Source: a virus
Taxonomy: Duplodnaviria; Heunggongvirae; Uroviricota; Caudoviricetes
Length of the DNA stretch: 17,481 nucleotides
IMG/VR virus record: IMGVR_UViG_2693429555_000018
Strand: one strand, 5' to 3'
The translations under genes were made by a program, and so were the position numbers. Each line of letters opens with the position of its first letter. Within the stretch, counting starts at the first letter, position 1. Shown piece after piece: positions 4,330 to 16,694 of the stretch. The notes under the pieces are model-generated. The model was not told the origin of the DNA, made no database searches, and saw only the letters and a program-made list of their open reading frames with translations.

Positions 4330-4693
4330 AAATGCAGAAATGGCGCTTAGCTCCGCAATCGGAGAGCAGGTGGCAAAGATTGCTGGCGCTGTGTGGATTC
4401 ATAACCTTCATTCTACTAGTGAAGAGAAAATGGCAATTCAGACGCCAGAGGGACGCACCATTACTACATCTCTGAAGCCGTCAGATGTTTGTGATCTGAT
4501 TTGCGCATTCATGTACCCAGCAATGAGGACTGTCCACGGCGATAAGTGGAAACTTGCGACAACCGCTGAATTTGATATGTGGCTAAACAATGATGGCATG
4601 CTGACTGATTACGGAATAACCAAGTGGCAGATGCTGGTTAGCCATATCGCAAACGCTATAGACCACGTGGGGTACGGTGATGCGAAACATTGA
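4322..4693 (+). CDS. hypothetical protein (123 aa)
   Basis: ATG 4322 preceded by GGGAGG; 3' end overlaps the primase start. Confidence 0.6.
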   Translation: MRENAEMALSSAIGEQVAKIAGAVWIHNLHSTSEEKMAIQTPEGRTITTSLKPSDVCDLICAFMYPAMRTVHGDKWKLATTAEFDMWLNNDGMLTDYGITKWQMLVSHIANAIDHVGYGDAKH

Positions 4694-7436
4694 TCTTATC
4701 CGTCAGGTTATCAGTGCGTCTGAAAACAACTGGCCTCATGTGCTGGGCTGCCTGAACATAAATGTCCCTGACTCTCCGCGCCGTCATGCTCCCTGCCCTG
4801 CATGTGGGGGCAAAGATCGATTCCGGTTCGATGACAACGGGCGCGGTAGCTTCATCTGTAATCAGTGCGGCGCTGGTGATGGGCTGGATTTAATTAAACG
4901 CGTAAATAACTGCGACACAACAGAGGCGGCGCTTCTTGCCGCTGATGTTCTGGGTATTGATTACCGGACAACGGAAACACCAGAAGCCACCAGCCAGAAA
5001 CGGGAACAACTGGAAACCGAGCGCCAGCGACGCGAACAGGAGCGCCTGAAAAGGGCAGAGAAGGACGAACAACAAAGACGGGATACGTTTTCCCGTCAGT
5101 TTGATGACATGCGCAGAAAGGCTGTAAACGGCAAATCTGATTATCTGGTTGCGAAAGGGGTAGGTGATTTTACATTCCCCGTGTTGCCCGATGGATCTCT
5201 GTTGCTGGCGCTGGTGGATAAATCCGGCGCAGTAACAGCAGCACAGACTATTACCTCACATGGTGAAAAAAGACTCCTGATAGGTTCAGCAAAGCGGGGG
5301 GCATATCACGCCATAAACGCACCAGAAACAACACAGAGCATCTTAATCGCAGAAGGGCTGGCAACGGCATTATCTGCCCATTTAATGCGTCCAGAGGCGC
5401 TGACAGTGGCGGCGATTGATGCCGGGAACCTGTTATATGTCGCCCAGGTACTGCGGGATAAATTTCCTTCAGCACAAATCATCATTGCTGCGGATAACGA
5501 CCACAGCGAAGGAAGACAAAACACGGGGAGAATAGCAGCAGAAAAAGCAGCTTTATCTGTTTCTGGATGGGTGGCATTACCCCCGACAGATCACAAAGCA
5601 GACTGGAATGATTACCACCAAAAACACGGCATTAAATGCGCCACAGAAGCGTTCAATAAGTCAATGTACCAACCACAGGGTAATGGCGTGAAACAGGAGC
5701 CACAAACCATTGAGGGAAGCGATTTTAAGGTTATGGATACCGACCCACTGAAACCAAGAATAGAAAGCCGCGAGGATGGCATTTATTGGGTATCTCCGAG
5801 AGCTGACAGCCAGAGTGGAGAAATCATCAATAACGAAAGCTGGTTATGTTCTCCGTTAAGCGTTATCGGTACTGGCAGAGACGATAAAGACCAGTATCTC
5901 ATTCTTCGCTGGCTGTCGTTTGGTTCTGAAACGCCGACAACCGCTGCCATTCCACTGGCTGATATTGGTGAACGTGAAGGATGGCGCACACTTAAAGCTG
6001 GTGGGGTAAATGTCACGACCAAAAGCAGCCTCAGAGCAATACTGGCAGACTGGCTACAACGCAGTGGCTCTCGTGAATTGTGGCGTGTTGCTCATGCCAC
6101 TGGCTGGCAATGCGGAGCGTACATCATGCCTGATGGGGAAATCATCGGAACACCTGAAAATCCTGTGCTGTTCAGCGGGAGAAGCTCAGCCGCAGCCGGA
6201 TATACCGTCTCAGGGAGCGCGAAAAGCTGGCGTGATAACGTGGCGCGTCTGGCCTTTGGTAACTATTCAATGATGACCGGGATCGGCGCAGCACTGGCAG
6301 CGCCATTGATTGGGCTGGTGGGCGCTGACGGGTTCGGCATTCATTTCTATGAGCAGTCGAGCGCAGGTAAGACCACCACGGCAAACGTGGCGAGCAGCTT
6401 ATACGGCAACCCTGATTTACTGCGGCTGACGTGGTACGGAACCGCGCTGGGGCTGGCAAATGAAGCCGCCGCCCACAATGACGGACTAATGCCGCTTGAT
6501 GAAGTTGGTCAGGGCGCTGATCCTGTCAGTGTTTCACAGTCTGCCTATGCGTTATTTAACGGTGTAGGGAAACTGCAAGGCGCTAAAGATGGTGGAAACC
6601 GGGATCTAAAACGCTGGCGTACAGTGGCAATCAGCACCGGAGAAATGGATTTAGAAACATTTATCGCTACTTCCGGGCGAAAAACCAAAGCCGGGCAACT
6701 GGTGCGACTGCTGAATATTCCGTTGAGTAAAGCAGTACGCTTTCACGATTACCAGAACGGAAAACAGCACGCAGACGCACTGAAAGACGCTTACCAGCAT
6801 CACCACGGCGCAGCCGGGCGTGAGTGGATTAAATGGCTGGCAGACCACCAGCAACAGGCAATTAAAACTGTTCGTGACTGCGAAAGCAGATGGAGAAGTC
6901 TGATCCCATCCGATTATGGTGAGCAGGTTCACCGTGTAGCCGCGCGATTTGCCATTCTGGAGGCCGCATTGCTGTTAGGCGAGGTTGTAACAGGCTGGGA
7001 TGCTCAGACATGCCGTGATGCGATACAGCACAGCTATAACGCATGGTTGCGCGAGTTCGGCACAGGTAACAAAGAACATCAGCAGATTATTGAACAAACG
7101 GAGGCATTTCTTAATGCCTATGGGCTTAGCCGTTTTGCACCATTTCCATACAGCCCGGCAGATTTGCCCATCAAAGATTTAGCCGGATACCGTCAGCGTG
7201 GAGAACATGACGAAAGCCCAATGATTTTCTACACATTCCCGGCCACATTTGAAAAGGAGATCGCATGTGGTTTCAACGCAAAACAGTTTGCTGAAGTGTT
7301 GAAAAAAGCCGGGATGCTAACCCCACCAAACAGCGGTCGTGGATACCAAAGAAAATCACCACGTATTCAGGGACGACAAATAAACGTTTATGTACTCAAT
7401 TACCAGCCAGGAGATTACAACTCATCTGAAGAATGA
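4680..7436 (+). CDS. P4-alpha-like / PICI-type replication protein: primase (zinc ribbon + TOPRIM) fused to a P-loop helicase-like domain
   Basis: About 918 aa from ATG 4680 (GTG 4677 also possible; GGGG 7 nt upstream). Cys4 zinc ribbon CPACGGKDRFRFDDNGRGSFICNQCG (nt ~4792-4868). TOPRIM-like acidic motifs IAEGLATA (~5347-5370) and AADNDHSEG (~5488-5514). P-loop SSAGKTT (6357-6377). This architecture is established for P4 alpha and satellite Pri-Rep proteins; an iteron cluster follows immediately. Confidence 0.85.
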   Translation: MRNIDLIRQVISASENNWPHVLGCLNINVPDSPRRHAPCPACGGKDRFRFDDNGRGSFICNQCGAGDGLDLIKRVNNCDTTEAALLAADVLGIDYRTTETPEATSQKREQLETERQRREQERLKRAEKDEQQRRDTFSRQFDDMRRKAVNGKSDYLVAKGVGDFTFPVLPDGSLLLALVDKSGAVTAAQTITSHGEKRLLIGSAKRGAYHAINAPETTQSILIAEGLATALSAHLMRPEALTVAAIDAGNLLYVAQVLRDKFPSAQIIIAADNDHSEGRQNTGRIAAEKAALSVSGWVALPPTDHKADWNDYHQKHGIKCATEAFNKSMYQPQGNGVKQEPQTIEGSDFKVMDTDPLKPRIESREDGIYWVSPRADSQSGEIINNESWLCSPLSVIGTGRDDKDQYLILRWLSFGSETPTTAAIPLADIGEREGWRTLKAGGVNVTTKSSLRAILADWLQRSGSRELWRVAHATGWQCGAYIMPDGEIIGTPENPVLFSGRSSAAAGYTVSGSAKSWRDNVARLAFGNYSMMTGIGAALAAPLIGLVGADGFGIHFYEQSSAGKTTTANVASSLYGNPDLLRLTWYGTALGLANEAAAHNDGLMPLDEVGQGADPVSVSQSAYALFNGVGKLQGAKDGGNRDLKRWRTVAISTGEMDLETFIATSGRKTKAGQLVRLLNIPLSKAVRFHDYQNGKQHADALKDAYQHHHGAAGREWIKWLADHQQQAIKTVRDCESRWRSLIPSDYGEQVHRVAARFAILEAALLLGEVVTGWDAQTCRDAIQHSYNAWLREFGTGNKEHQQIIEQTEAFLNAYGLSRFAPFPYSPADLPIKDLAGYRQRGEHDESPMIFYTFPATFEKEIACGFNAKQFAEVLKKAGMLTPPNSGRGYQRKSPRIQGRQINVYVLNYQPGDYNSSEE

Positions 7437-7461
7437 GCTTCTTCATGTGCGTAGAAAAGGC

Positions 7462-7572
7462 GTTGGTTCAGTTGGTTCAGTTGGTTCAATTTGTAAAGAG
7501 TATTGTTTTATAAGAATTTTATTCTTTTTATTGAACCAACACTGAACCAACAGCACGGTATTTTGAACCAAC
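7462..7572. repeat. iteron cluster, candidate origin of replication (ori-like)
   Basis: Three tandem GTTGGTTCA at 7462-7470, 7471-7479 and 7480-7488; a ~43-bp AT-rich spacer; then three inverted copies TGAACCAAC at 7532-7540, 7543-7551 and 7564-7572. Lies directly downstream of the primase stop (7436), the usual ori position in PICI-like elements. Confidence 0.6.
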
Positions 7573-7622
7573 ACAATGTGACTGAATTGATGCGCACAAC
7601 ACCTGGCTGGCATCAGAGAGTG

Positions 7623-7698
7623 TTTTACGAGACTTTCGTAAAATCCTGTGTACAAGGGCGTGACGTTTTTGAAAGTGAGCACTACGAAATTTTCGTAG
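7623..7698. promoter_or_regulatory. two related palindromic operator-like sites (TACGA...TCGTA)
   Basis: TTTTACGA-GACTT-TCGTAAAA at 7623-7643 and CTACGAAA-T-TTTCGTAG at 7682-7698: 8-bp inverted arms with a shared core, about 59 bp apart, between the ori and the terminator. Confidence 0.3.
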
Positions 7699-7893
7699 TT
7701 CAGAAAACAGCCCCTGAGAAGTTGTTATACCTGTTCAGCAAACCATCCGCATAGCTGATCGCGAATCAAATTACCAATGGAGCCAGAAGCAAGGGCAGAA
7801 CTGAAAAGCGCCTGCCGTGAAGAGTAATGCGACACCATAAATATAGTTTTTAGAGTCCATAAAAAACCTGTCAAAACCTGACACACAGAACGA

Positions 7894-7926
7894 TGCCACC
7901 AGCTACTGAGCGGTGGCATTTTTTTG
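7894..7926 (+). terminator. rho-independent terminator
   Basis: Stem TGCCACC (7894-7900) / GGTGGCA (7912-7918), 11-nt loop, followed by a T7 run (7919-7925). Confidence 0.55.
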
Positions 7927-8020
7927 TGCTATCTGTTTCATATTTTGCAATTACGATGATGAATATTGCGATTTGTGAAACTATAATAACTGTTGTTTTA
8001 TACAGTTCTAAGGGGGCGTT

Positions 8021-8182
8021 ATGGCTATTTCAGTAAAGCCGGTATTGATAAGTGAGAAGCAAATGGAAGCGATAAAGAAAATTCAGGAAGAGCAGCGTAA
8101 AAAATCAGGAATTGGAGTAGCGCCAACTCTGCATGAAATTGCACGAGGGTTAATAGATAAGGCGCTGGCAGGCTGTATGTGA
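8021..8182 (+). CDS. small hypothetical protein (53 aa), possibly DNA-binding
   Basis: ATG 8021 preceded by AAGGGGG (8010-8016); product MAISVKPVLISEKQMEAIKKIQEEQRKKSGIGVAPTLHEIARGLIDKALAGCM. Not in the ORF track (under 60 aa). Function is a guess. Confidence 0.4.
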   Translation: MAISVKPVLISEKQMEAIKKIQEEQRKKSGIGVAPTLHEIARGLIDKALAGCM

Positions 8183-8198
8183 AAATGGATGGCATCGC

Positions 8199-8660
8199 AT
8201 GGAACTAAAATTTATTGATAACCCTGTGCGATTACAGGCCTTTCTCAACGAGCCTGGCAATACCGAAAATATTGTTGAGCCGGGGCACACGTACTACATC
8301 AAGCCTGATGCGGTATATCTCGGTATCTACGAAGGATTGGTGCTGGCTGGCGTTCATGAAGTGCGTAACTTCTGGCATAGCATTGTTGAATGCCATGCGG
8401 TGTACGACCCCGGATTCCGTGGTGAATATGCACTGCAAGGGCATCGATTATTCTGCAAATGGCTTCTCGAAAACTCACCATTCCTTAACAGCATTACCAT
8501 GGTTCCTGACACAACGAAATACGGACGGGCAATTATCAGTTTGCTTGGCGCTACCCGTGTTGGTCACCTTGATGATGCTTATATCAGATGTGGTAAACCC
8601 GTCGGCGTAACGCTTTATCAGTTAACTCGGCAACAATATAAGGAATTCAGCGAGTGTTAA
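8199..8660 (+). CDS. phage protein; by position possibly a P22 gp14-like protein
   Basis: 153 aa, protein-like ORF directly upstream of the three coupled putative ejection-protein genes. Assignment rests only on size and synteny with the P22 order 14-7-20-16. Confidence 0.5.
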   Translation: MELKFIDNPVRLQAFLNEPGNTENIVEPGHTYYIKPDAVYLGIYEGLVLAGVHEVRNFWHSIVECHAVYDPGFRGEYALQGHRLFCKWLLENSPFLNSITMVPDTTKYGRAIISLLGATRVGHLDDAYIRCGKPVGVTLYQLTRQQYKEFSEC

Positions 8661-9331
8661 TTACCCATATAGCTCATAAACATCTCAATCGTGCCGTATA
8701 CGAAAAAGGCGGTGATGGTGGTGCCTCTAAAGCTCAGGCGAAGGCCCAGCAGCAGGCAATTGATTTGCAGCGCGAGCAGTGGAATACGGTGATGAATAAT
8801 CTCAAGCCGTATGCAGAAGTCGGATTGCCTGCTTTACAACAACTACAAGGACTGATGACTCTGGAAGGGCAGAATAAAGCCGCGAATGATTTCTTTGGTT
8901 CTGGTTTATATAAAACACAGGCAGATCAGGCCCGTTATCAGAACCTTGTCTCAGCAGAAGCTACCGGGGGGCTTGGCTCAACAGCTACCAGTAACCAGTT
9001 ATCTTCCATTGCGCCCATGCTTTATAACAATTGGCTTAGTGGGCAAATGCAAAATTATGGAAACCTGCTAAATGTCGGGATGAATGCGGCATCAGGGCAG
9101 GCAACAGCAGGGCAAAACTACGCCAATAATACCGGACAACTCTTGCAGGGGCTTGGCGCTATTCGTGCAGGTCAGGCGCAGCAGCCATCCAGTCTTGCGC
9201 GTGGTATTGGTGGGGCGGCATCAGGCGCTTTAGCGGGTGCGCAACTTGGTTCCGTTGTTCCGGGTATAGGTAATGTCGCCGGGGCTATTGGTGGTGGGCT
9301 TATTGGTCTTGTTGGGGGGCTTGGATTCTAA
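8654..9331 (+). CDS. putative phage DNA-ejection (transfer) protein, P22 gp7-like
   Basis: 225 aa; GTG start at 8654 overlapping the upstream stop; Gly-rich hydrophobic C-terminus (GIGGAASGALAGAQLG...GGLIGLVGGLGF). Size and position fit gp7 (~229 aa) in the P22 order 14-7-20-16. Synteny inference, not an alignment. Confidence 0.55.
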   Translation: MLITHIAHKHLNRAVYEKGGDGGASKAQAKAQQQAIDLQREQWNTVMNNLKPYAEVGLPALQQLQGLMTLEGQNKAANDFFGSGLYKTQADQARYQNLVSAEATGGLGSTATSNQLSSIAPMLYNNWLSGQMQNYGNLLNVGMNAASGQATAGQNYANNTGQLLQGLGAIRAGQAQQPSSLARGIGGAASGALAGAQLGSVVPGIGNVAGAIGGGLIGLVGGLGF

Positions 9332-10752
9332 TGGCGACATGGCAACTTGGCGGGCTGCCTAGCATGGTACCGCAAAATGATAATGCTCCTCGTTCTTCCG
9401 TTCCTCAGCCTGTGCAGTTTCAGCAGCAGCCAAACGTAGGTTTAATGGCGCTACAGGGGCTAAGAGGCGTTGCTGAGATTAATCAGCAGGCACGTCAACA
9501 ACAGCGTAAAGCAGAGTTTCAGAAAGCATATGCCGGGGCTTTTGAGTCTGGAGACAGAAACAAAATGCGCAGTCTTATTTCTGAGTATCCAGAAGAATTT
9601 GAAAGCGTTCAGAAAGGGATGGGCTTTATTGATGACGACCAGAGAAATTCTATTGGTCATCTTGCGACTAGTGCTCAAATCGCATCTTCGCTCGGAACTG
9701 GGGCATTTGGAAAATTCATAGCAGATAACGAAGATGAAATGCGTCGCTTGGGAATTTCTCCTGAGTCTGTTGCCGAAATGCATGTTAATGATCCACAGGA
9801 ATTCCAGCGGCTTGCTGGTAGTATGGCACTGTTTTCTCTCGGTCATGAGAAGTACTTCGATATCAAAGATCGAATGGAAGGTCGGGATATTGAGCGTGGC
9901 AAGTTGGCAGAGACAATCCGCAGCAATCAGGCTGGAGAGGCGCTTCAGGCGAGAGGGCAGGATATTAGCCGAGCAAATGCGTTAACGTCAGCATATGCAC
10001 CAACAGCCGCAATGCAGAATTACAATCAGTACGCGCAAATGTTAAAGGCGGATCCAGAGGGGGCAGCGGCATTTGCGGCAGCGGCTGGAATTAATACAAA
10101 CGCCAAAAAATTAATGAGTGTTAGGGAAAACGATGATGGCACTGTCACAAAATACTACACAGACGGAAGTGAAGAGCAGGGAAAACTAAACCAGCCAATA
10201 TCTGGAGATGGGTTTCGTCCAATAGCTTTGCCAACAGCCCAAAAGATCATGGAAAAGTCGCCAGAAGGGGCTAAAAAAGCTGCTGGATTTGCATACAGAG
10301 TTAGGGATGCTCTTGATTCAATGGATACACTGAAAGGCCAGCTTAGCCCACAGCGAGTGGCGATCATTAATAATGCTTTGGGTAATGGGACGCTGGCTAA
10401 CTTAACGCTCAGCCCAACAGAGCAGCAATACGTTGTTAATGCTAATGACGCAATAATGGCAATACTCCGTCAGGAAACAGGGGCAGCTATCGTACCTGCT
10501 GAAATGTCAAAATATTATCAAATGTATTTCCCTCAGCCTGGCGACTCCACAAAAACCATTGATACCAAGCGCCGGAAGATGGAAAACCAGTTCAATTCGC
10601 TGAAAGCTGCTTCTGGTCGAGCTTATGATGCTTTGCGTGTTATTTCAGCAGTTGACAGAGGAACTTCTTCTTCGTCGCAGACATTGCCGCAATCTGAGCA
10701 GGTATCACAGCCAGCAGCCAGCAGTAATTTTTCTTCACTATGGGGTGATTAA
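9331..10752 (+). CDS. putative phage DNA-ejection protein, P22 gp20-like
   Basis: 473 aa; TAATG overlap with the upstream gene. Size matches P22 gp20 (~471 aa) and the position matches. Confidence 0.6.
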   Translation: MATWQLGGLPSMVPQNDNAPRSSVPQPVQFQQQPNVGLMALQGLRGVAEINQQARQQQRKAEFQKAYAGAFESGDRNKMRSLISEYPEEFESVQKGMGFIDDDQRNSIGHLATSAQIASSLGTGAFGKFIADNEDEMRRLGISPESVAEMHVNDPQEFQRLAGSMALFSLGHEKYFDIKDRMEGRDIERGKLAETIRSNQAGEALQARGQDISRANALTSAYAPTAAMQNYNQYAQMLKADPEGAAAFAAAAGINTNAKKLMSVRENDDGTVTKYYTDGSEEQGKLNQPISGDGFRPIALPTAQKIMEKSPEGAKKAAGFAYRVRDALDSMDTLKGQLSPQRVAIINNALGNGTLANLTLSPTEQQYVVNANDAIMAILRQETGAAIVPAEMSKYYQMYFPQPGDSTKTIDTKRRKMENQFNSLKAASGRAYDALRVISAVDRGTSSSSQTLPQSEQVSQPAASSNFSSLWGD

Positions 10753-12857
10753 TGGCTAAAGCATGGAAAGATGTTATCGCCTCTCCACAGTATCAGGCGT
10801 TAGCACCAGAACAAAAAGTGCAGGCTCAGGAGCAATACTTCAATGAAGTCGTGGCCCCGCAAGCCGGAGAAAGTGTAGAGCAGGCTAAGCAGGCTTTTTA
10901 TGCTGCCTATCCACTACCATCTACGAATGAAATAGACCGCTCCCAATCAGCAACTCAAAATATTCAACATACATCATCTGATAATTCTCTTGCGTCAGGG
11001 TATGCAAAGTTAGCTACTCAGCAAAGAGAGGGGCTTGAGCGTTCAGCAGAACAGGGAGCCAGTCTTGGGACTGCGATGCGCGATGCTATAACAGGCGAAA
11101 GCCGAATGACTCCAGAGATGGAGAGACTGCAAAATGTCGCCTCTGCCCCAGAATTGAACTCACTAAGCATGGATGCCCTGAAGGCTGGATGGTCTCAACT
11201 TTTCGGCTCTGACGCGTCTCAGGAAAAGATTCTTCAGGGCATGGGGGCGACATTAAGGCAGGATGAGAAGGGGAATACTATCGTTTCTCTGCCATCAGGT
11301 GATTATGCCCTGAACAAGCCGGGTTTATCACCGCAAGACCTGACTTCGTTTCTGGCTAATGCGCTGGCGTTTACACCAGCGGGCAGGGCTGGAACGGTGC
11401 TTGGTGCCATAGGAAAATCAGCAGCTACAGATTTAGCACTACAGGGAGCCACCAGCAAGGCTGGTGGAGAAGATATTGATCCGTTACAAACGGTAATTTC
11501 TGCTGGCATTGGTGGTATTGGTAAGGGGCTGGAAAATACAGCGAGTGCGGTTTCGAGGGCTGTTCGTGGTGATATGTCGCCTGAAGCAAAGGCTGCTGTC
11601 GACTTTGCATCGGAAAGAAATCTGCCGTTAATGACCAGTGACATGCTGAAAGATAAAACCTTTATGCAGAGTCAGGCTCAGACATTAGGCGAAAGAGTTC
11701 CTTTTTTTGGAACCGGTAAGAATCGGCTGAATCAACAACAAGCACGAGAAAATTTAGTCAGAACATTTAGCGATGGTCTGGGTGGCATTTCTGATAAACA
11801 GCTTTATGAATCTGCGACTAAAGGGCAACAAAAATTCATTGAGGCAGCAGGAAAGCGATATAACCGCATAATTGACGCTATGGGGGATACCCCTGTCGAT
11901 CTCTCAAACACGGTAAAAACTATCGACAATCAGATTGCCGTGTTAAGCCGCCCTGGCAAATCTCAGGATAGAGCCGCGGTAAAAGTCTTGCAGCAATTTA
12001 AAGACGATATCACCAGCGGACCAAATGACCTGCGTCTGGCGAGGGAAAACAGAACCGATCTTCGAAAGCGATTTATAGCGTCATCTGACACTGTTGATAA
12101 AGATACGCTCCAGAAAGCCAGCGATATTATCTACAAGGCATATACGGCGGATATGAAAAAAGCCGTAGCCAAAAATCTTGGAGCAGACGAAGCCATTAAT
12201 ATGGCAAGGGTTGATCGCTCATGGTCTAAATTCAATGACATGATGGGAAGAACGCGCGTTCAAAAGGCAATAGCCAGCGGCAAGGCCACGCCTGAGGATG
12301 TAACAAAACTCGTTTTTAGCCAAAGCCCATCAGAACGTTCTCAGCTTTACAGGCTTCTGGATGACAATGGTAGGCAAAACGCACGAGCAGCTATAGTTCA
12401 GAATGCTGTAGATAAGGCGACTGATCCGTCTGGAAATATCAGTGTTGAGAAGTTTATTAATGCGTTACACCGGAACAGGAAGCAATCAGCAACTTTCTTT
12501 AAAGGCGTACATGGAAAGGAACTGGACGGCGTTATTAAATACCTCAACGATACAAGACACGCGGCAAAAGCGAACGTTCAAAACTTAAATGGTCAGCAGC
12601 TTTATGGATTGTTAGTTGGTGGTGGCATCATAAACGCAGCAGTATTGGCGGGGATGCTAAAAACGGCTGCGTTTGTTGTTCCTGCTGCTGGTGCCGTAGG
12701 CGGAGCAGCGAAGGCATACGAAAGCCCTGTTATACGAAATGCCTTGTTACGTCTGGCAAATACGCCAAAAGGTAGCACAGCATATGACAGAGCGATCAGT
12801 ACGGTCACACAATCGCTCACCAGAGTCGCACAGGCATCACAAAAAGAAGCTCAATAA
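10752..12857 (+). CDS. putative phage DNA-ejection protein, P22 gp16-like
   Basis: 701 aa; TAATG overlap with the upstream gene; hydrophobic, Gly/Ala-rich C-terminal region (GLLVGGGIINAAVLAGMLKTAAFVVPAAGAVGGAAKAY). Third gene of the coupled trio, in the gp16 position; followed by a terminator. Confidence 0.6.
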   Translation: MAKAWKDVIASPQYQALAPEQKVQAQEQYFNEVVAPQAGESVEQAKQAFYAAYPLPSTNEIDRSQSATQNIQHTSSDNSLASGYAKLATQQREGLERSAEQGASLGTAMRDAITGESRMTPEMERLQNVASAPELNSLSMDALKAGWSQLFGSDASQEKILQGMGATLRQDEKGNTIVSLPSGDYALNKPGLSPQDLTSFLANALAFTPAGRAGTVLGAIGKSAATDLALQGATSKAGGEDIDPLQTVISAGIGGIGKGLENTASAVSRAVRGDMSPEAKAAVDFASERNLPLMTSDMLKDKTFMQSQAQTLGERVPFFGTGKNRLNQQQARENLVRTFSDGLGGISDKQLYESATKGQQKFIEAAGKRYNRIIDAMGDTPVDLSNTVKTIDNQIAVLSRPGKSQDRAAVKVLQQFKDDITSGPNDLRLARENRTDLRKRFIASSDTVDKDTLQKASDIIYKAYTADMKKAVAKNLGADEAINMARVDRSWSKFNDMMGRTRVQKAIASGKATPEDVTKLVFSQSPSERSQLYRLLDDNGRQNARAAIVQNAVDKATDPSGNISVEKFINALHRNRKQSATFFKGVHGKELDGVIKYLNDTRHAAKANVQNLNGQQLYGLLVGGGIINAAVLAGMLKTAAFVVPAAGAVGGAAKAYESPVIRNALLRLANTPKGSTAYDRAISTVTQSLTRVAQASQKEAQ

Positions 12858-12860
12858 CTG

Positions 12861-12885
12861 GTTAGCCACGGATGGCTAATTTTTG
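12861..12885 (+). terminator. rho-independent terminator after the gp16-like gene
   Basis: Stem TTAGCCA (12862-12868) / TGGCTAA (12873-12879), loop CGGA, then TTTTTG (12880-12885). Overlaps the 3' end of the convergent membrane-protein gene. Confidence 0.45.
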
Positions 12886-13352
12886 TTCTTTGCTCTCATC
12901 CACAGGTAAAGAAGGGCAAGAACAAGACAAAAAACAGAGAATAGATGACCTACCTCATATGGTGCGCCAAAAAAATTAGCTATTGATACGGGCAAAAAAG
13001 CTGAAGCGATCAAAATTGAAAGGCAAAAAATAAGCCCAGTAATATAGTTTATTAAATTCTTAAATGAGAAATGTTTTGCTTGATTTACGGTCTTAGCGAA
13101 TGATCGCTTAACGACGGATAAAAGCAAATAGATGGCGACAGTTGCTAATGCCCCTTTCCACCAGTCTGGATATAGTTTTGCGACAATCAGACCAAGGAAA
13201 ACCATGATGACAGCCTGAGCATTCACACCAACCCTCCCTTTAGCGTTGTTTAGAATGGCAATCATCATATATCCAAGACATGGCATTTGGTACATAGCTT
13301 GGGTCGGGATTTCAAATCCGATCCCCGTTGATGGGGCCGTTACAGTACGCAC
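12876..13352 (-). CDS. small integral membrane protein in the P22 SieA position (candidate superinfection-exclusion protein)
   Basis: Minus-strand ORF convergent with the gp16-like gene, as sieA is in P22. Strongly hydrophobic, multi-helix product (…MMIAILNNAKGRVGVNAQAVIMVFLGLIVAKLYPDWW…LLYLWMRAKNKN). Start uncertain: 13352 is GTG; in-frame ATGs at 13295, 13286 and 13268 are alternatives. Confidence 0.5.
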   Translation of the reverse strand: MRTVTAPSTGIGFEIPTQAMYQMPCLGYMMIAILNNAKGRVGVNAQAVIMVFLGLIVAKLYPDWWKGALATVAIYLLLSVVKRSFAKTVNQAKHFSFKNLINYITGLIFCLSILIASAFLPVSIANFFGAPYEVGHLFSVFCLVLALLYLWMRAKNKN

Positions 13353-14259
13353 ATATCCGCTTTATGTGAAACAGGAAGATTTTTCTGATATCACTGCCAC
13401 AGCAAAACACCAATTTCGAGACAAGTACGCGTGCGAGGGGTATCAGTTGCAAAAAATTTTGCAACTACGTCCGACCAGTATGCACACGATGGCGGGGGGA
13501 TACCATAAAACTGTTCTCTACATGAGACAGAGTGGTGGTGATGTGTTGATTATCGGCGTATATGCGCACAGGACGCGCTATGACGATGTTTTATGCGGGT
13601 ACACCAATCACATGTATCTGGTGTGATAAATCGCGTTACATGACCTCTTATGTTGTGCTGGTGGTTATCACGACGTTCTGAATCTGGCCTTTGCCTGGTA
13701 TTTTGCGACAAGTACGCGCGCGTAGCATCGAAATAATCGGATGGCGTATACTGCTGGTAATATGAAGACCGATAGCATTAACCGAAAGGAGAAAGACTTC
13801 TCGATAACGGCAAGGGGGCTGAATTGCGAGGCGAGATTAAGCAACTGTCTTGAACGTAAAAATCATGGAGCAACATGATGGTACGATTCATTCCATTCTT
13901 CGTTCTTTCTGAGCATTGCGTTCAGGCTTAGTCAAAATTAGTGTTGCGAGCGGACCTATTAGTAATTGTTGGTGCGATGCGCCTGTTATGGATTGTTATG
14001 GTTGTGGCAGGCCTGATTAATATCCAGTATGACCACCAGCTATGAGAGGCCACCTCAGTGGTTCGCAGTTGCAGGTTTGCACTCAGGTTCGCAGGGTTTT
14101 GGCTACTTTCACGTGCGAACCTGCAGAATTGCAAAGGACAACTAAGTCCTCTGGCCAACTCCCGGTTTATGAGCGACACAGTCCGCCTGGCGCATCGTTT
14201 TCGTCGAGTGCGCCCATCAGCTTGTCCATGGACTATCCACCACTCGATATTAAAGCTAA

Positions 14260-14445
14260 TCATTGGTTGCCAGCCCGCGAATCAAGTTTGTTCTGGATCC
14301 AAGCTTCAACCTCCTCAAGCGACCATCTAGCTGATCTACCAATTTTAACTGGCTGTGGAAACGTGCCCGTCTTAACCCATGAGTAGATTGCCGTTTTCTT
14401 GAAGCCCGTTCTGAGCATGACTTCGCTTAATTTGATAAGGCGCAT
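14260..14445 (-). CDS. alpA: AlpA-family regulator (second copy, opposite orientation)
   Basis: 61 aa; MRLIKLSEVMLRTGFKKTAIYSWVKTGTFPQPVKIGRSARWSLEEVEAWI is a textbook AlpA-family pattern. AGGAG-type SD upstream on the minus strand. Confidence 0.75.
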   Translation of the reverse strand: MRLIKLSEVMLRTGFKKTAIYSWVKTGTFPQPVKIGRSARWSLEEVEAWIQNKLDSRAGNQ

Positions 14446-14494
14446 AGAGGCTCCTCTGCTTTAGATTAAGCATAGTGACAATCTGGCTTTGGGC

Positions 14495-14529
14495 GGTATC
14501 CAAAAGCGAGGTATCCATGTTGGTATCCA
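14495..14529. promoter_or_regulatory. three GGTATCCA direct repeats in the alpA (-) upstream region
   Basis: GGTATCCA at 14495-14502, 14510-14517 and 14522-14529, 50-85 bp upstream of the minus-strand alpA start and inside the divergent intergenic region. Confidence 0.45.
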
Positions 14530-14697
14530 CCAAAACGCTGTTTACCAAAAAAGTTACCACCGGAACAGGACATTTTGAGCTGTAACTTAACACATAGCAT
14601 ATGGAGTTCACGCATAGACTTCACGCACAACGGCTCCGGCCAGTGAAGAATCACCCTGGCTGGCAATATAATGCCGATCACCATCAGAGGGGAATCC

Positions 14698-14889
14698 ATG
14701 ACACCACGAGAAATCGAGCTGCTGACCATCGCCAAGCTGGAGCATGACGGCCACCAGCTCAGCCCGGCAGAACTGCGGGAATTAAGGCGCCAGCTGGCAG
14801 AGGGCCCTGTAATAGCCAGGCGGCACCGCGAAATGATGACCAGCCACGCATATCGCTGGAGCAAACCAGCGCCGCTCCGTGCGCGGTGA
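14698..14889 (+). CDS. small hypothetical protein (63 aa)
   Basis: ATG 14698 preceded by AGAGGGG (5-nt spacing); MTPREIELLTIAKLEHDGHQLSPAELRELRRQLAEG... Divergent from alpA (-). The track start at 14671 lacks an RBS. Confidence 0.4.
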   Translation: MTPREIELLTIAKLEHDGHQLSPAELRELRRQLAEGPVIARRHREMMTSHAYRWSKPAPLRAR

Positions 14890-14963
14890 GCAGCACCTAA
14901 CCAGCACTAGACAAGCCCTGTGCTGGTGGATGTCCCTCATAATTAGCGGTTTTTAAACGGCGT

Positions 14964-15084
14964 GTTGGTTCACGGCCTCTTTTTGTTGGTTCAAAAATGG
15001 GGTGTGTTGGTTCACATTTTGCGAATAATCCTTTTAAAAACAATACTCTTTACAAATTGAACCAACTGAACCAACTGAACCAAC
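14964..15084. repeat. second iteron cluster, an inverted copy of the 7462-7572 ori-like region
   Basis: GTTGGTTCA at 14964-14972, 14985-14993 and 15006-15014; AT-rich spacer; three tandem TGAACCAAC at 15058-15066, 15067-15075 and 15076-15084. Bases 15037-15084 are the exact reverse complement of 7462-7510 (about 48 bp). Confidence 0.6.
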
Positions 15085-15120
15085 ACCTTTTTGCTTATCT
15101 ATATAGTCTGAGAGGCAGAA

Positions 15121-15408
15121 ATGATAAGGGACAGGAAAGCTGAAGAGCTGGAGTTAAAAGGGCTATGCCGGAGAGCTGCCACACGATGGGCAGAAGTCAT
15201 GACGCTGGCAGATGGCGATAAAGAACGTGAACATGCAGCAAACAGACGCTCTGAATATATCCGTAGGGCGGCACGCCCACCAGCAACTACAGACAGATTC
15301 GGAGACTTAAGACAGGCAGTTAAGCGAACGCATTCAGCTCTTGGTATGGATGAGGAAGCGAGAGGGTACTTCAGGCGTTATCGCGATAAAGATTGCCAGC
15401 TACGATAA
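15121..15408 (+). CDS. hypothetical basic protein (95 aa)
   Basis: ATG 15121 preceded by GAGAGG (15110-15115); Arg-rich product. No recognised motif. Confidence 0.5.
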   Translation: MIRDRKAEELELKGLCRRAATRWAEVMTLADGDKEREHAANRRSEYIRRAARPPATTDRFGDLRQAVKRTHSALGMDEEARGYFRRYRDKDCQLR

Positions 15409-16391: not shown

Positions 16392-16694
16392 GTCCGTTTC
16401 CCCATTCTATGTAAATACACTTCCTAAAAATAGCGATTAACTTACCTCTCACAATCAATTTCACGAGCAATACGCGTGCGCAGTACAACAAGCCTGAACA
16501 GGGTTACACACCTCGATCGTGAGCGATGTAGACAATGGCTTTTGACCAAAGCACCAGAAAAAACCGTGTACATAAGGGTGTACATAATCAAAAAAATCAT
16601 TAGAAAGAAATCAGCCACAATGCGGCATTGAAGCCAATACTCTACAAACAGATTCAGACTCGTAACACTAATTCTTACTTTTCAGCCTTCACAA

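Follow-up and report, generated by a model that had tools for sequence, protein, structure and literature searches.

Why should a satellite island carry the same iteron array twice, in opposite orientations and 7.35 kb apart? The question is raised by a 17,481-bp stretch of DNA, IMG/VR record IMGVR_UViG_2693429555_000018 (Caudoviricetes; hereafter the window, meaning this stretch at its full length), which is, by its gene content and order, a phage-inducible chromosomal island (PICI) of Escherichia coli resembling the known island EcCIMP1. One iteron cluster, H1, lies directly behind the gene for a primase-helicase (Pri-Rep), and the other, H2, lies on the far side of a block of accessory genes. 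As set out below, the two are probably Pri-Rep-binding arrays, the mirror-image units of a single composite replication origin of the satellite, split by an accessory cassette.

Anatomy and conservation of the iteron clusters

The 9-mer GTTGGTTCA (complement, TGAACCAAC) occurs 12 times in the window, every copy within one of the two clusters; dinucleotide-preserving shuffles of the window (n = 200) contain 0.15 copies on average and 2 at most, and none of the 200 reaches 12. H1 (7455-7576, plus strand) consists of three head-to-tail iterons starting at 7462, 7471, and 7480 (7462-7488), a spacer (7489-7531), and three phased iterons in the opposite orientation (7532-7540, 7543-7551, and 7564-7572). 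H2 (14964-15091, minus strand) is its mirror, with phased plus-strand iterons at 14964-14972, 14985-14993, and 15006-15014, a spacer at 15015-15057, and head-to-tail minus-strand iterons starting at 15058, 15067, and 15076 (15058-15084). The spacers are both 43 bp long and rich in AT (86% in H1 and 77% in H2, vs 52% for the window). H1 begins 26 nt past the stop codon of pri-rep, and H2 is 7.5 kb away. The initial annotation had described two inverted clusters of one 9-mer around an AT-rich spacer, the first placed where a satellite origin is expected, and was correct in both respects. Its further statement that 14964-15084 is the reverse complement of 7462-7572 holds for the architecture but not for the sequence: a repeat search of the window gives inverted arms of 55 nt at 98% identity (7455-7509 and 15037-15091), beyond which H1 and H2 match in the 9-mers only (80/147 positions), and the iteron offsets differ (70/81/102 in H1 vs 70/91/112 in H2). 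The exact inverted core is indeed 48 nt long, but it runs from 7462 to 7509 (against 15037-15084), the end at 7510 given earlier being one base too far.

PICIs and the Staphylococcus aureus pathogenicity islands (SaPIs) have origins defined by short iterons in opposed sets around an AT-rich region (PMC9371898, PMC6092414). With three iterons to either side of an AT-rich centre, both H1 and H2 lie within the range of 6-12 iterons, at least two of them opposed per side, and each is by the published definition a complete predicted origin unit of the PICI/SaPI type. The placement is also that of the type, as H1 directly follows pri-rep and H2 is contiguous with H1 in most relatives. Scans for DnaA-box and IHF consensus sequences gave no match, no sigma-70 consensus promoter was found in and around H1 and H2, and no RNA family of Rfam overlaps either cluster.

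Conservation was expressed as mean pairwise identity across 15 H1 units and 8 H2 units. The iterons reach 0.92-1.00 at every position of H1 and at five of the six positions of H2, the outermost phased iteron of H2 standing at 0.63; the gaps between phased iterons have values of 0.43-0.72, and the outer flanks 0.31-0.54. The iterons of both units are under purifying selection, and to judge by their identities, H1 and H2 are maintained to a similar degree. In the spacer, the first ~21 nt beside the tandem set (ATTTGTAAAGA...TGTTTT) are conserved across units and elements as well, so the 48-nt identity of the two arms mostly reflects shared constraint on the iterons and on this part of the spacer. 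A general concerted evolution of the arms was considered and rejected, since arm identity is 0.77 within elements and 0.74 between them. It should be noted that there is an exception: L085, an element of the E. coli lineage, has an exact arm of 87 nt that includes the whole AT-rich spacer, which is unlike that of the window. This homogenised arm implies that the arms can recombine by gene conversion, although conversion is not the main cause of their similarity.

Contiguous and split origins in related islands

The comparison with related islands, which the initial annotation had proposed to make for the presence of one or both clusters, gave a mixed answer: most relatives carry both, contiguously, and split and single-unit origins occur as well. 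Eighty related loci were fetched with an alignment of the primase and nine homologues (one genome per species, 10-kb flanks), and each was scanned for repeated 8- or 9-mers 3' of the primase stop codon. Recognisable iterons are present in 33 loci, and about 22 of these, from other genera, have 9-13 iterons gathered in one block (200-315 bp) that directly follows the primase gene on its 3' side. The sequence of elements in such a contiguous origin is tandem set, AT-rich spacer, phased set, a conserved CTGGCTGGCAG, phased set, AT-rich spacer, tandem set, and ACCTTTTTRCTTATATAG. Given as offsets from the first iteron (>, forward; <, reverse), the typical layout is 0> 9> 18>; 70< 81< 102<; 145< 166< 189>; 232< 241< 250<. 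Morganella and some others have 0> 9>; 61< 72< 93< 114<; 171> 192> 213>; 265< 274< 283<, the second half of which reproduces the spacing and orientation of H2 in the window (0> 21> 42> 94< 103< 112<); two Morganella loci (L024 and L026) thus show the mirror layout of the window in contiguous form. The order and spacing in contiguous relatives indicate that H1 and H2 are the two units of one composite origin and, judged by this comparison of sequences, H2 is the second half of the origin as the family has it, but displaced. Not all relatives have both units: L017, L020, and L034 have only one, and L008 has H1 plus the tandem set alone.

Remnants of the contiguous arrangement are visible in the window, which retains CCTGGCTGGCA at 7602-7612, just past H1, and ACCTTTTTGCTTATCTATATAG just past H2. 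The conserved central motif CCTGGCTGG (7602-7610, plus strand), which lies between the units in contiguous relatives, marks the left edge of the intervening segment. It is non-coding and is the reverse complement of CCAGCCAGG, found at ~7402-7411 among the last codons of the primase gene, so that this 9-nt pair brackets H1 in inverted orientation. The downstream copy is kept in relatives of differing iteron classes, and the pair could be a candidate priming site or a site for a host factor.

Split origins, with units 4.6-8.7 kb apart and accessory genes between them, are found in E. coli, Cedecea, Serratia, and one strain of Lonsdalea. In Cedecea davisae, the clusters are separated by 6.7 kb that includes a P4 Beta-family protein and a 584-aa SLT-domain protein; in Serratia sp. 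Ag1, by 4.6 kb with a Dit-like protein, a baseplate plug, a hub, and a gpV-type spike; and in Lonsdalea britannica LMG 26267, by 5.8 kb. L. britannica provides both forms, a contiguous origin in L033 and a split one in L014, whose flanks are 93-97% identical; where L033 is contiguous, L014 has 5.9 kb separating H1 from the H2 tandem set. In all four split lineages, the break lies between units and never within one.

The split form is widespread in E. coli. EcCIMP1 (locus L084) carries both clusters, 8.4 kb apart; at least 80% of the window is found in 129 complete E. coli genomes, and ~460-550 of the 5,426 complete genomes have at least one cluster. An artificial query joining H1, H2, and perC, the gene next to H2, matched none of 551 genomes as one piece, and the E. 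coli lineage therefore appears uniformly split. Degraded copies of the EcCIMP1-like island type also exist: L003 (E. coli 2013C-4361, an island at tRNA-Thr) keeps H2, perC, and the second alpA gene (alpA_1) but has lost primase and H1 to IS1203 and rearrangement, whereas L002 (GENOMIC22-004) keeps primase and H1 and lacks H2, with alpA_1 and perC ~150 bp apart.

Iteron recognition and rival readings

The presumed initiator is the 918-aa product of pri-rep (4680-7436, plus strand), a Zn-ribbon and TOPRIM primase fused to a DUF927 helicase resembling SaPI Rep (Pfam matches PF08273, PF13362, and PF06048). Its N-terminal half, the Zn-ribbon/TOPRIM part, is 33% identical to P4 alpha, and its helicase part (residues 403-814) matches SaPI Rep (8tch_A, E = 1e-11), a homology that would make the last ~100 residues colinear with the C-terminal iteron-binding domain of Rep. 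Within this tail, ~25 residues from the C-terminus, lies the motif RKSPRI (residues 891-896; codons at 7350-7367). The family uses at least seven iteron sequences (GTTGGTTCA, TGTTGTCTC, ACGGGTTAC, AGTGTGTCA, GGTGTAACA, GGTCGGTTT, and TTGGGATAA), and each composite origin has a single one, common to both units. An alignment of 27 primases reveals that the iteron class follows the short basic tail motif, where tails were compared: GTTGGTTCA goes with RKSPR[IV], TGTTGTCTC with GRV-RE, ACGGGTTAC/T with KALK[RK][IM], AGTGTGTCA with KRTITV, and GTCGGTTCA and GGTCGGTTT with RKTPRI and KKTLxI. Primases of the GTTGGTTCA and TGTTGTCTC classes are ~80% identical, and of the 10 columns that fully separate the two classes, 5 are at residues 891-896; a Morganella primase, just 55% identical overall, keeps RKSPRV and uses the GTTGGTTCA iteron. 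This co-variation speaks, indirectly, for a predicted binding of iterons through the C-terminal domain, as in Rep.

On the proposed model of a composite origin, a helper phage would induce the island, and Pri-Rep hexamers would use the C-terminal tail to bind the iterons and would melt the AT-rich spacer, load themselves, and prime synthesis. The excised circle of ~19-20 kb would carry two intact units, with initiation possible at either or both. In the E. coli lineage, a cassette of helper-phage-like ejection genes, the second alpA, and variable genes would have parted the units, leaving H2 beside perC. Several points weigh against this model. Binding, firing, and the sufficiency of one unit are inferred from the sequence only. 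The co-variation of tail and iteron holds for contiguous origins only, all split elements sharing one iteron class, and in many contiguous relatives the second unit has the orientation < < >, unlike the mirror pattern of the window. A winged helix was not found in the C-terminal domain by AlphaFold, by a profile search of the PDB, or by Foldseek: the AlphaFold models of the full primase and of the C-terminal 134 aa (predicted local distance difference test scores of 41.8 and 50.5) are both too poor for use, Foldseek against the PDB with the Pri-Rep models returned nothing below E = 0.5, and the profile search with the C-terminal domain gave no real match. Finally, the transduction rate of EcCIMP1 is low (PMC11773190), and a split origin could therefore be impaired.

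The initial annotation had offered three explanations for the pair of clusters, among which an origin with a second cis-acting site comes closest, with the correction that H2 appears to be a second mirror unit and not a site of a different kind. In a strict version of that explanation, the origin would be an obligate two-site one, as in P4 (ori/crr) or R6K, with initiation at one cluster and the other needed in cis through looping by Pri-Rep. In the P4 record, crr immediately follows the 3' end of alpha and ori is 4.7 kb off, with the same type-1 repeats in both, including tandem copies spaced by 9 bp; the primase shares its N-terminal half with P4 alpha; and the iterons of both units are intact in all examined split elements of E. 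coli, Cedecea, Serratia, and Lonsdalea. An obligate pair is nonetheless unlikely, because each unit alone has everything in the SaPI/PICI origin definition, the helicase and origin-binding part is DUF927 and not the D5_N/Pox_D5 of P4 alpha, and the repeat is direct in P4 crr but mirrored in the island, while the existence of relatives with one unit, or in L008 with H1 and a tandem set, argues against an obligatory two-site mechanism. A bolder proposal, conceivable though rather doubtful, is that H1 and H2 work as a distant pair bridged by Pri-Rep, with looping like that of P4 ori-crr or R6K, and at the same time as recombination anchors around a swappable helper-interaction cassette (ejection proteins, tail or baseplate parts, Abi, alpA_1). 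If true, origin architecture would be coupled to cargo exchange, possibly with preferential amplification of the cassette.

It is quite improbable that H2 is mainly a regulatory or copy-control site, at which Pri-Rep would regulate the divergent perC and alpA_1 or be titrated or handcuffed as at P1 incA. H2 does sit between divergent genes, with perC starting 36 nt past its last tandem iteron, and the next gene in contiguous relatives also starts near the tandem set, with ACCTTTTTRCTTATATAG as a conserved flank; however, the lack of a sigma-70 consensus promoter in or beside H2 speaks against such a role, as does the full anatomy of an origin unit, including an AT-rich spacer that a mere operator would not need. 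Very little probability attaches to the view, also raised initially, that H2 is what is left of the origin of another, degraded satellite that fused with the first. The second alpA on the opposite strand adjoins H2, and L003 has a block of a sieA-like gene through alpA_1, H2, and perC without primase, but in L003 the same type of island has been disrupted by an IS, no remnant of a second int or primase lies near H2 in the window, and the H2 iterons are as conserved as those of H1, the outermost phased copy excepted. Moreover, most relatives have the two units within a single origin, across genera and iteron classes, and the mobile EcCIMP1 is equally split. Least credible is the third initial suggestion, an inversion switch that flips the 7.4-kb segment between the arms. 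The arms are inverted, 55 nt long, and 98% identical, and the 87-nt exact arm of L085 points to gene conversion between arms; yet apart from L085, arms are scarcely more alike within elements than between them, and searches of Pfam and PHROG found no recombinase, invertase, or resolvase domain in the segment. An artificial inverted junction, in which the primase 3' end and H1 core are joined to the reverse complement of the inner H2 flank, was matched by none of 504 element-bearing E. coli genomes at a single place with coverage of 80% or more. The composite origin remains the preferred reading.

Island context and comparison with known systems

The island is inserted between yicC and dinD, and its integrase gene is found outside the window, 2.3 kb beyond the left end. 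From int onward, the order is an alpA-type helix-turn-helix gene, antA, ash, several small open reading frames (ORFs), pri-rep, and H1, and then a 53-aa ORF, homologues of P22 gp14, gp7, gp20, and gp16, ORFs of unknown function, the second alpA on the opposite strand, H2, perC, and one further ORF. This order is that of EcCIMP1 gene for gene; int, alpA, pri-rep, and an origin are present, and the genes for lysis and most of those for virion structure are missing, as in EcCIMP1-like PICIs. The PerC-family gene (15121-15408, plus strand) follows the origin in relatives with a contiguous origin too. A 12-bp direct repeat, GGTGTACATAAT, occurs near both island ends (positions 11619 and 30577 of locus L001, the latter being window position 16577) and is a candidate att core; the matches of several genomes to the window stop at 16653-16657. 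Inside an ORF annotated as Ash family (1650-2717), Rfam gathering-level matches on the plus strand to isrK (2031-2108, 69 bits) and to C4 antisense RNA (2171-2258, 81 bits) suggest a putative RNA immunity module in the style of P1 and P4 within a PICI.

The intervening accessory segment (7611-14963) begins with ~400 bp of non-coding DNA followed by cargo ORFs. Between H1 and the 53-aa ORF, ~445 bp (7577-8020) are without an annotated gene and contain terminator-like hairpins at 7902-7933. The 53-aa ORF (8021-8182), which recurs 5' of variable cargo genes in many relatives, is followed by genes for DUF2824/gp14-like (8199-8660), gp7-like (8654-9331), gp20-like (9331-10752), and gp16-like (10752-12857) proteins, and this P22-type DNA-ejection set (8021-12857) has 88-93% DNA identity to parts of podophages such as Kapi1 and Louie. 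Beyond it lie ORFs of unknown function and one small minus-strand ORF; the label SieA, previously given to the minus-strand ORF at 12876-13352, has no backing from Pfam or PHROG, neither of which gives a match. The second alpA (alpA_1-type helix-turn-helix; 14260-14445, minus strand) has, just upstream of its start, three GGTATCC repeats (TGGATACC on the minus strand; 14495-14528, spaced by 12-15 bp), likely an operator for some regulator. An 83-nt stretch at 14698-14780, which encodes the start of a small minus-strand ORF (MTPREIELLTIAKLEH...), is 74-88% conserved in more than 10 relatives, at positions that vary relative to the origin. The neighbours of H2 vary among E. coli elements, and in L085 an Abi-family gene replaces alpA_1 beside it. 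With tail and baseplate genes in the equivalent position in Serratia and an SLT protein in Cedecea, the interval between the two units has the look of a slot for genes resembling those of the helper virion, in which satellites carry genes taken from their helper phages or directed at them.

Compared with known systems, the island is closest to EcCIMP1, with which it shares int, alpA, antA, ash, the TOPRIM/DUF927 primase, DUF2824 and ejection genes, the opposite-strand alpA, perC, and the split origin; it differs in its site (yicC-dinD instead of tRNA-Thr), in the gp16 allele, and in the genes after perC. EcCIMP1 is a 19,963-bp PICI of E. coli MP1 that excises, circularises, and is transduced by its helper, the P22-like phage Kapi1 (Pick et al. 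2025, PMC11773190), and the paper describing it mentions neither iterons nor an origin. The likeness to P4 is partial: there too, two separated arrays of one initiator-binding repeat are found, one directly 3' of the primase-helicase, with a tandem spacing of 9 bp. In P4, replication requires both ori and crr. However, crr there is made up of a pair of direct repeats, each of 120 bp, and the array that forms ori is distinct and lies upstream of the alpha operon; an alpha-type initiator combines primase with D5_N/SF3 and Pox_D5, whereas here the Zn-ribbon/TOPRIM half alone is homologous and the rest is DUF927. Separated arrays occur in both, and the one-unit relatives argue against a requirement for both arrays in the island. 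In iteron plasmids such as P1 (incC/incA) and R6K (gamma with alpha/beta), a second, distant iteron cluster is bound by the same initiator and acts through looping or handcuffing; these distant arrays are copy-control or enhancer sites and lack the full anatomy of an origin unit. Pri-Rep is not known to be homologous to the Rep proteins of P1 or R6K. Site-specific invertible segments differ in having a recombinase and inverted isomers, of which the island and its E. coli relatives gave no sign in the searches above.

With the origins of SaPIs and Gram-negative PICIs, the island has in common an AT-rich region enclosed by opposed iteron sets and placed right behind the initiator gene, and an initiator in which a self-loading helicase is fused to a primase, its DUF927 part homologous to SaPI Rep. 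Unlike them, it has the unit duplicated in mirror, with 12 iterons and two AT-rich regions, and the copies stand 7.5 kb apart with cargo between. Neither the mirror duplication nor the split is mentioned in PMC6092414 or PMC11773190, and a mirror-duplicated PICI-type origin with units split by accessory genes is apparently undescribed for the EcCIMP1-like family. A candidate specificity code emerges from the pairing of a 9-bp iteron with the short tail motif (about six residues), and the natural series of single, double-contiguous, and double-split origins bears on how many units a self-loading Pri-Rep needs and on whether units communicate. PICI origins have so far been described as one iteron/AT-rich/iteron unit right after rep; in the EcCIMP1-like family, that unit is mirror-duplicated, and in a widespread E. 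coli lineage the two copies stand 7-9 kb apart without loss of iterons.

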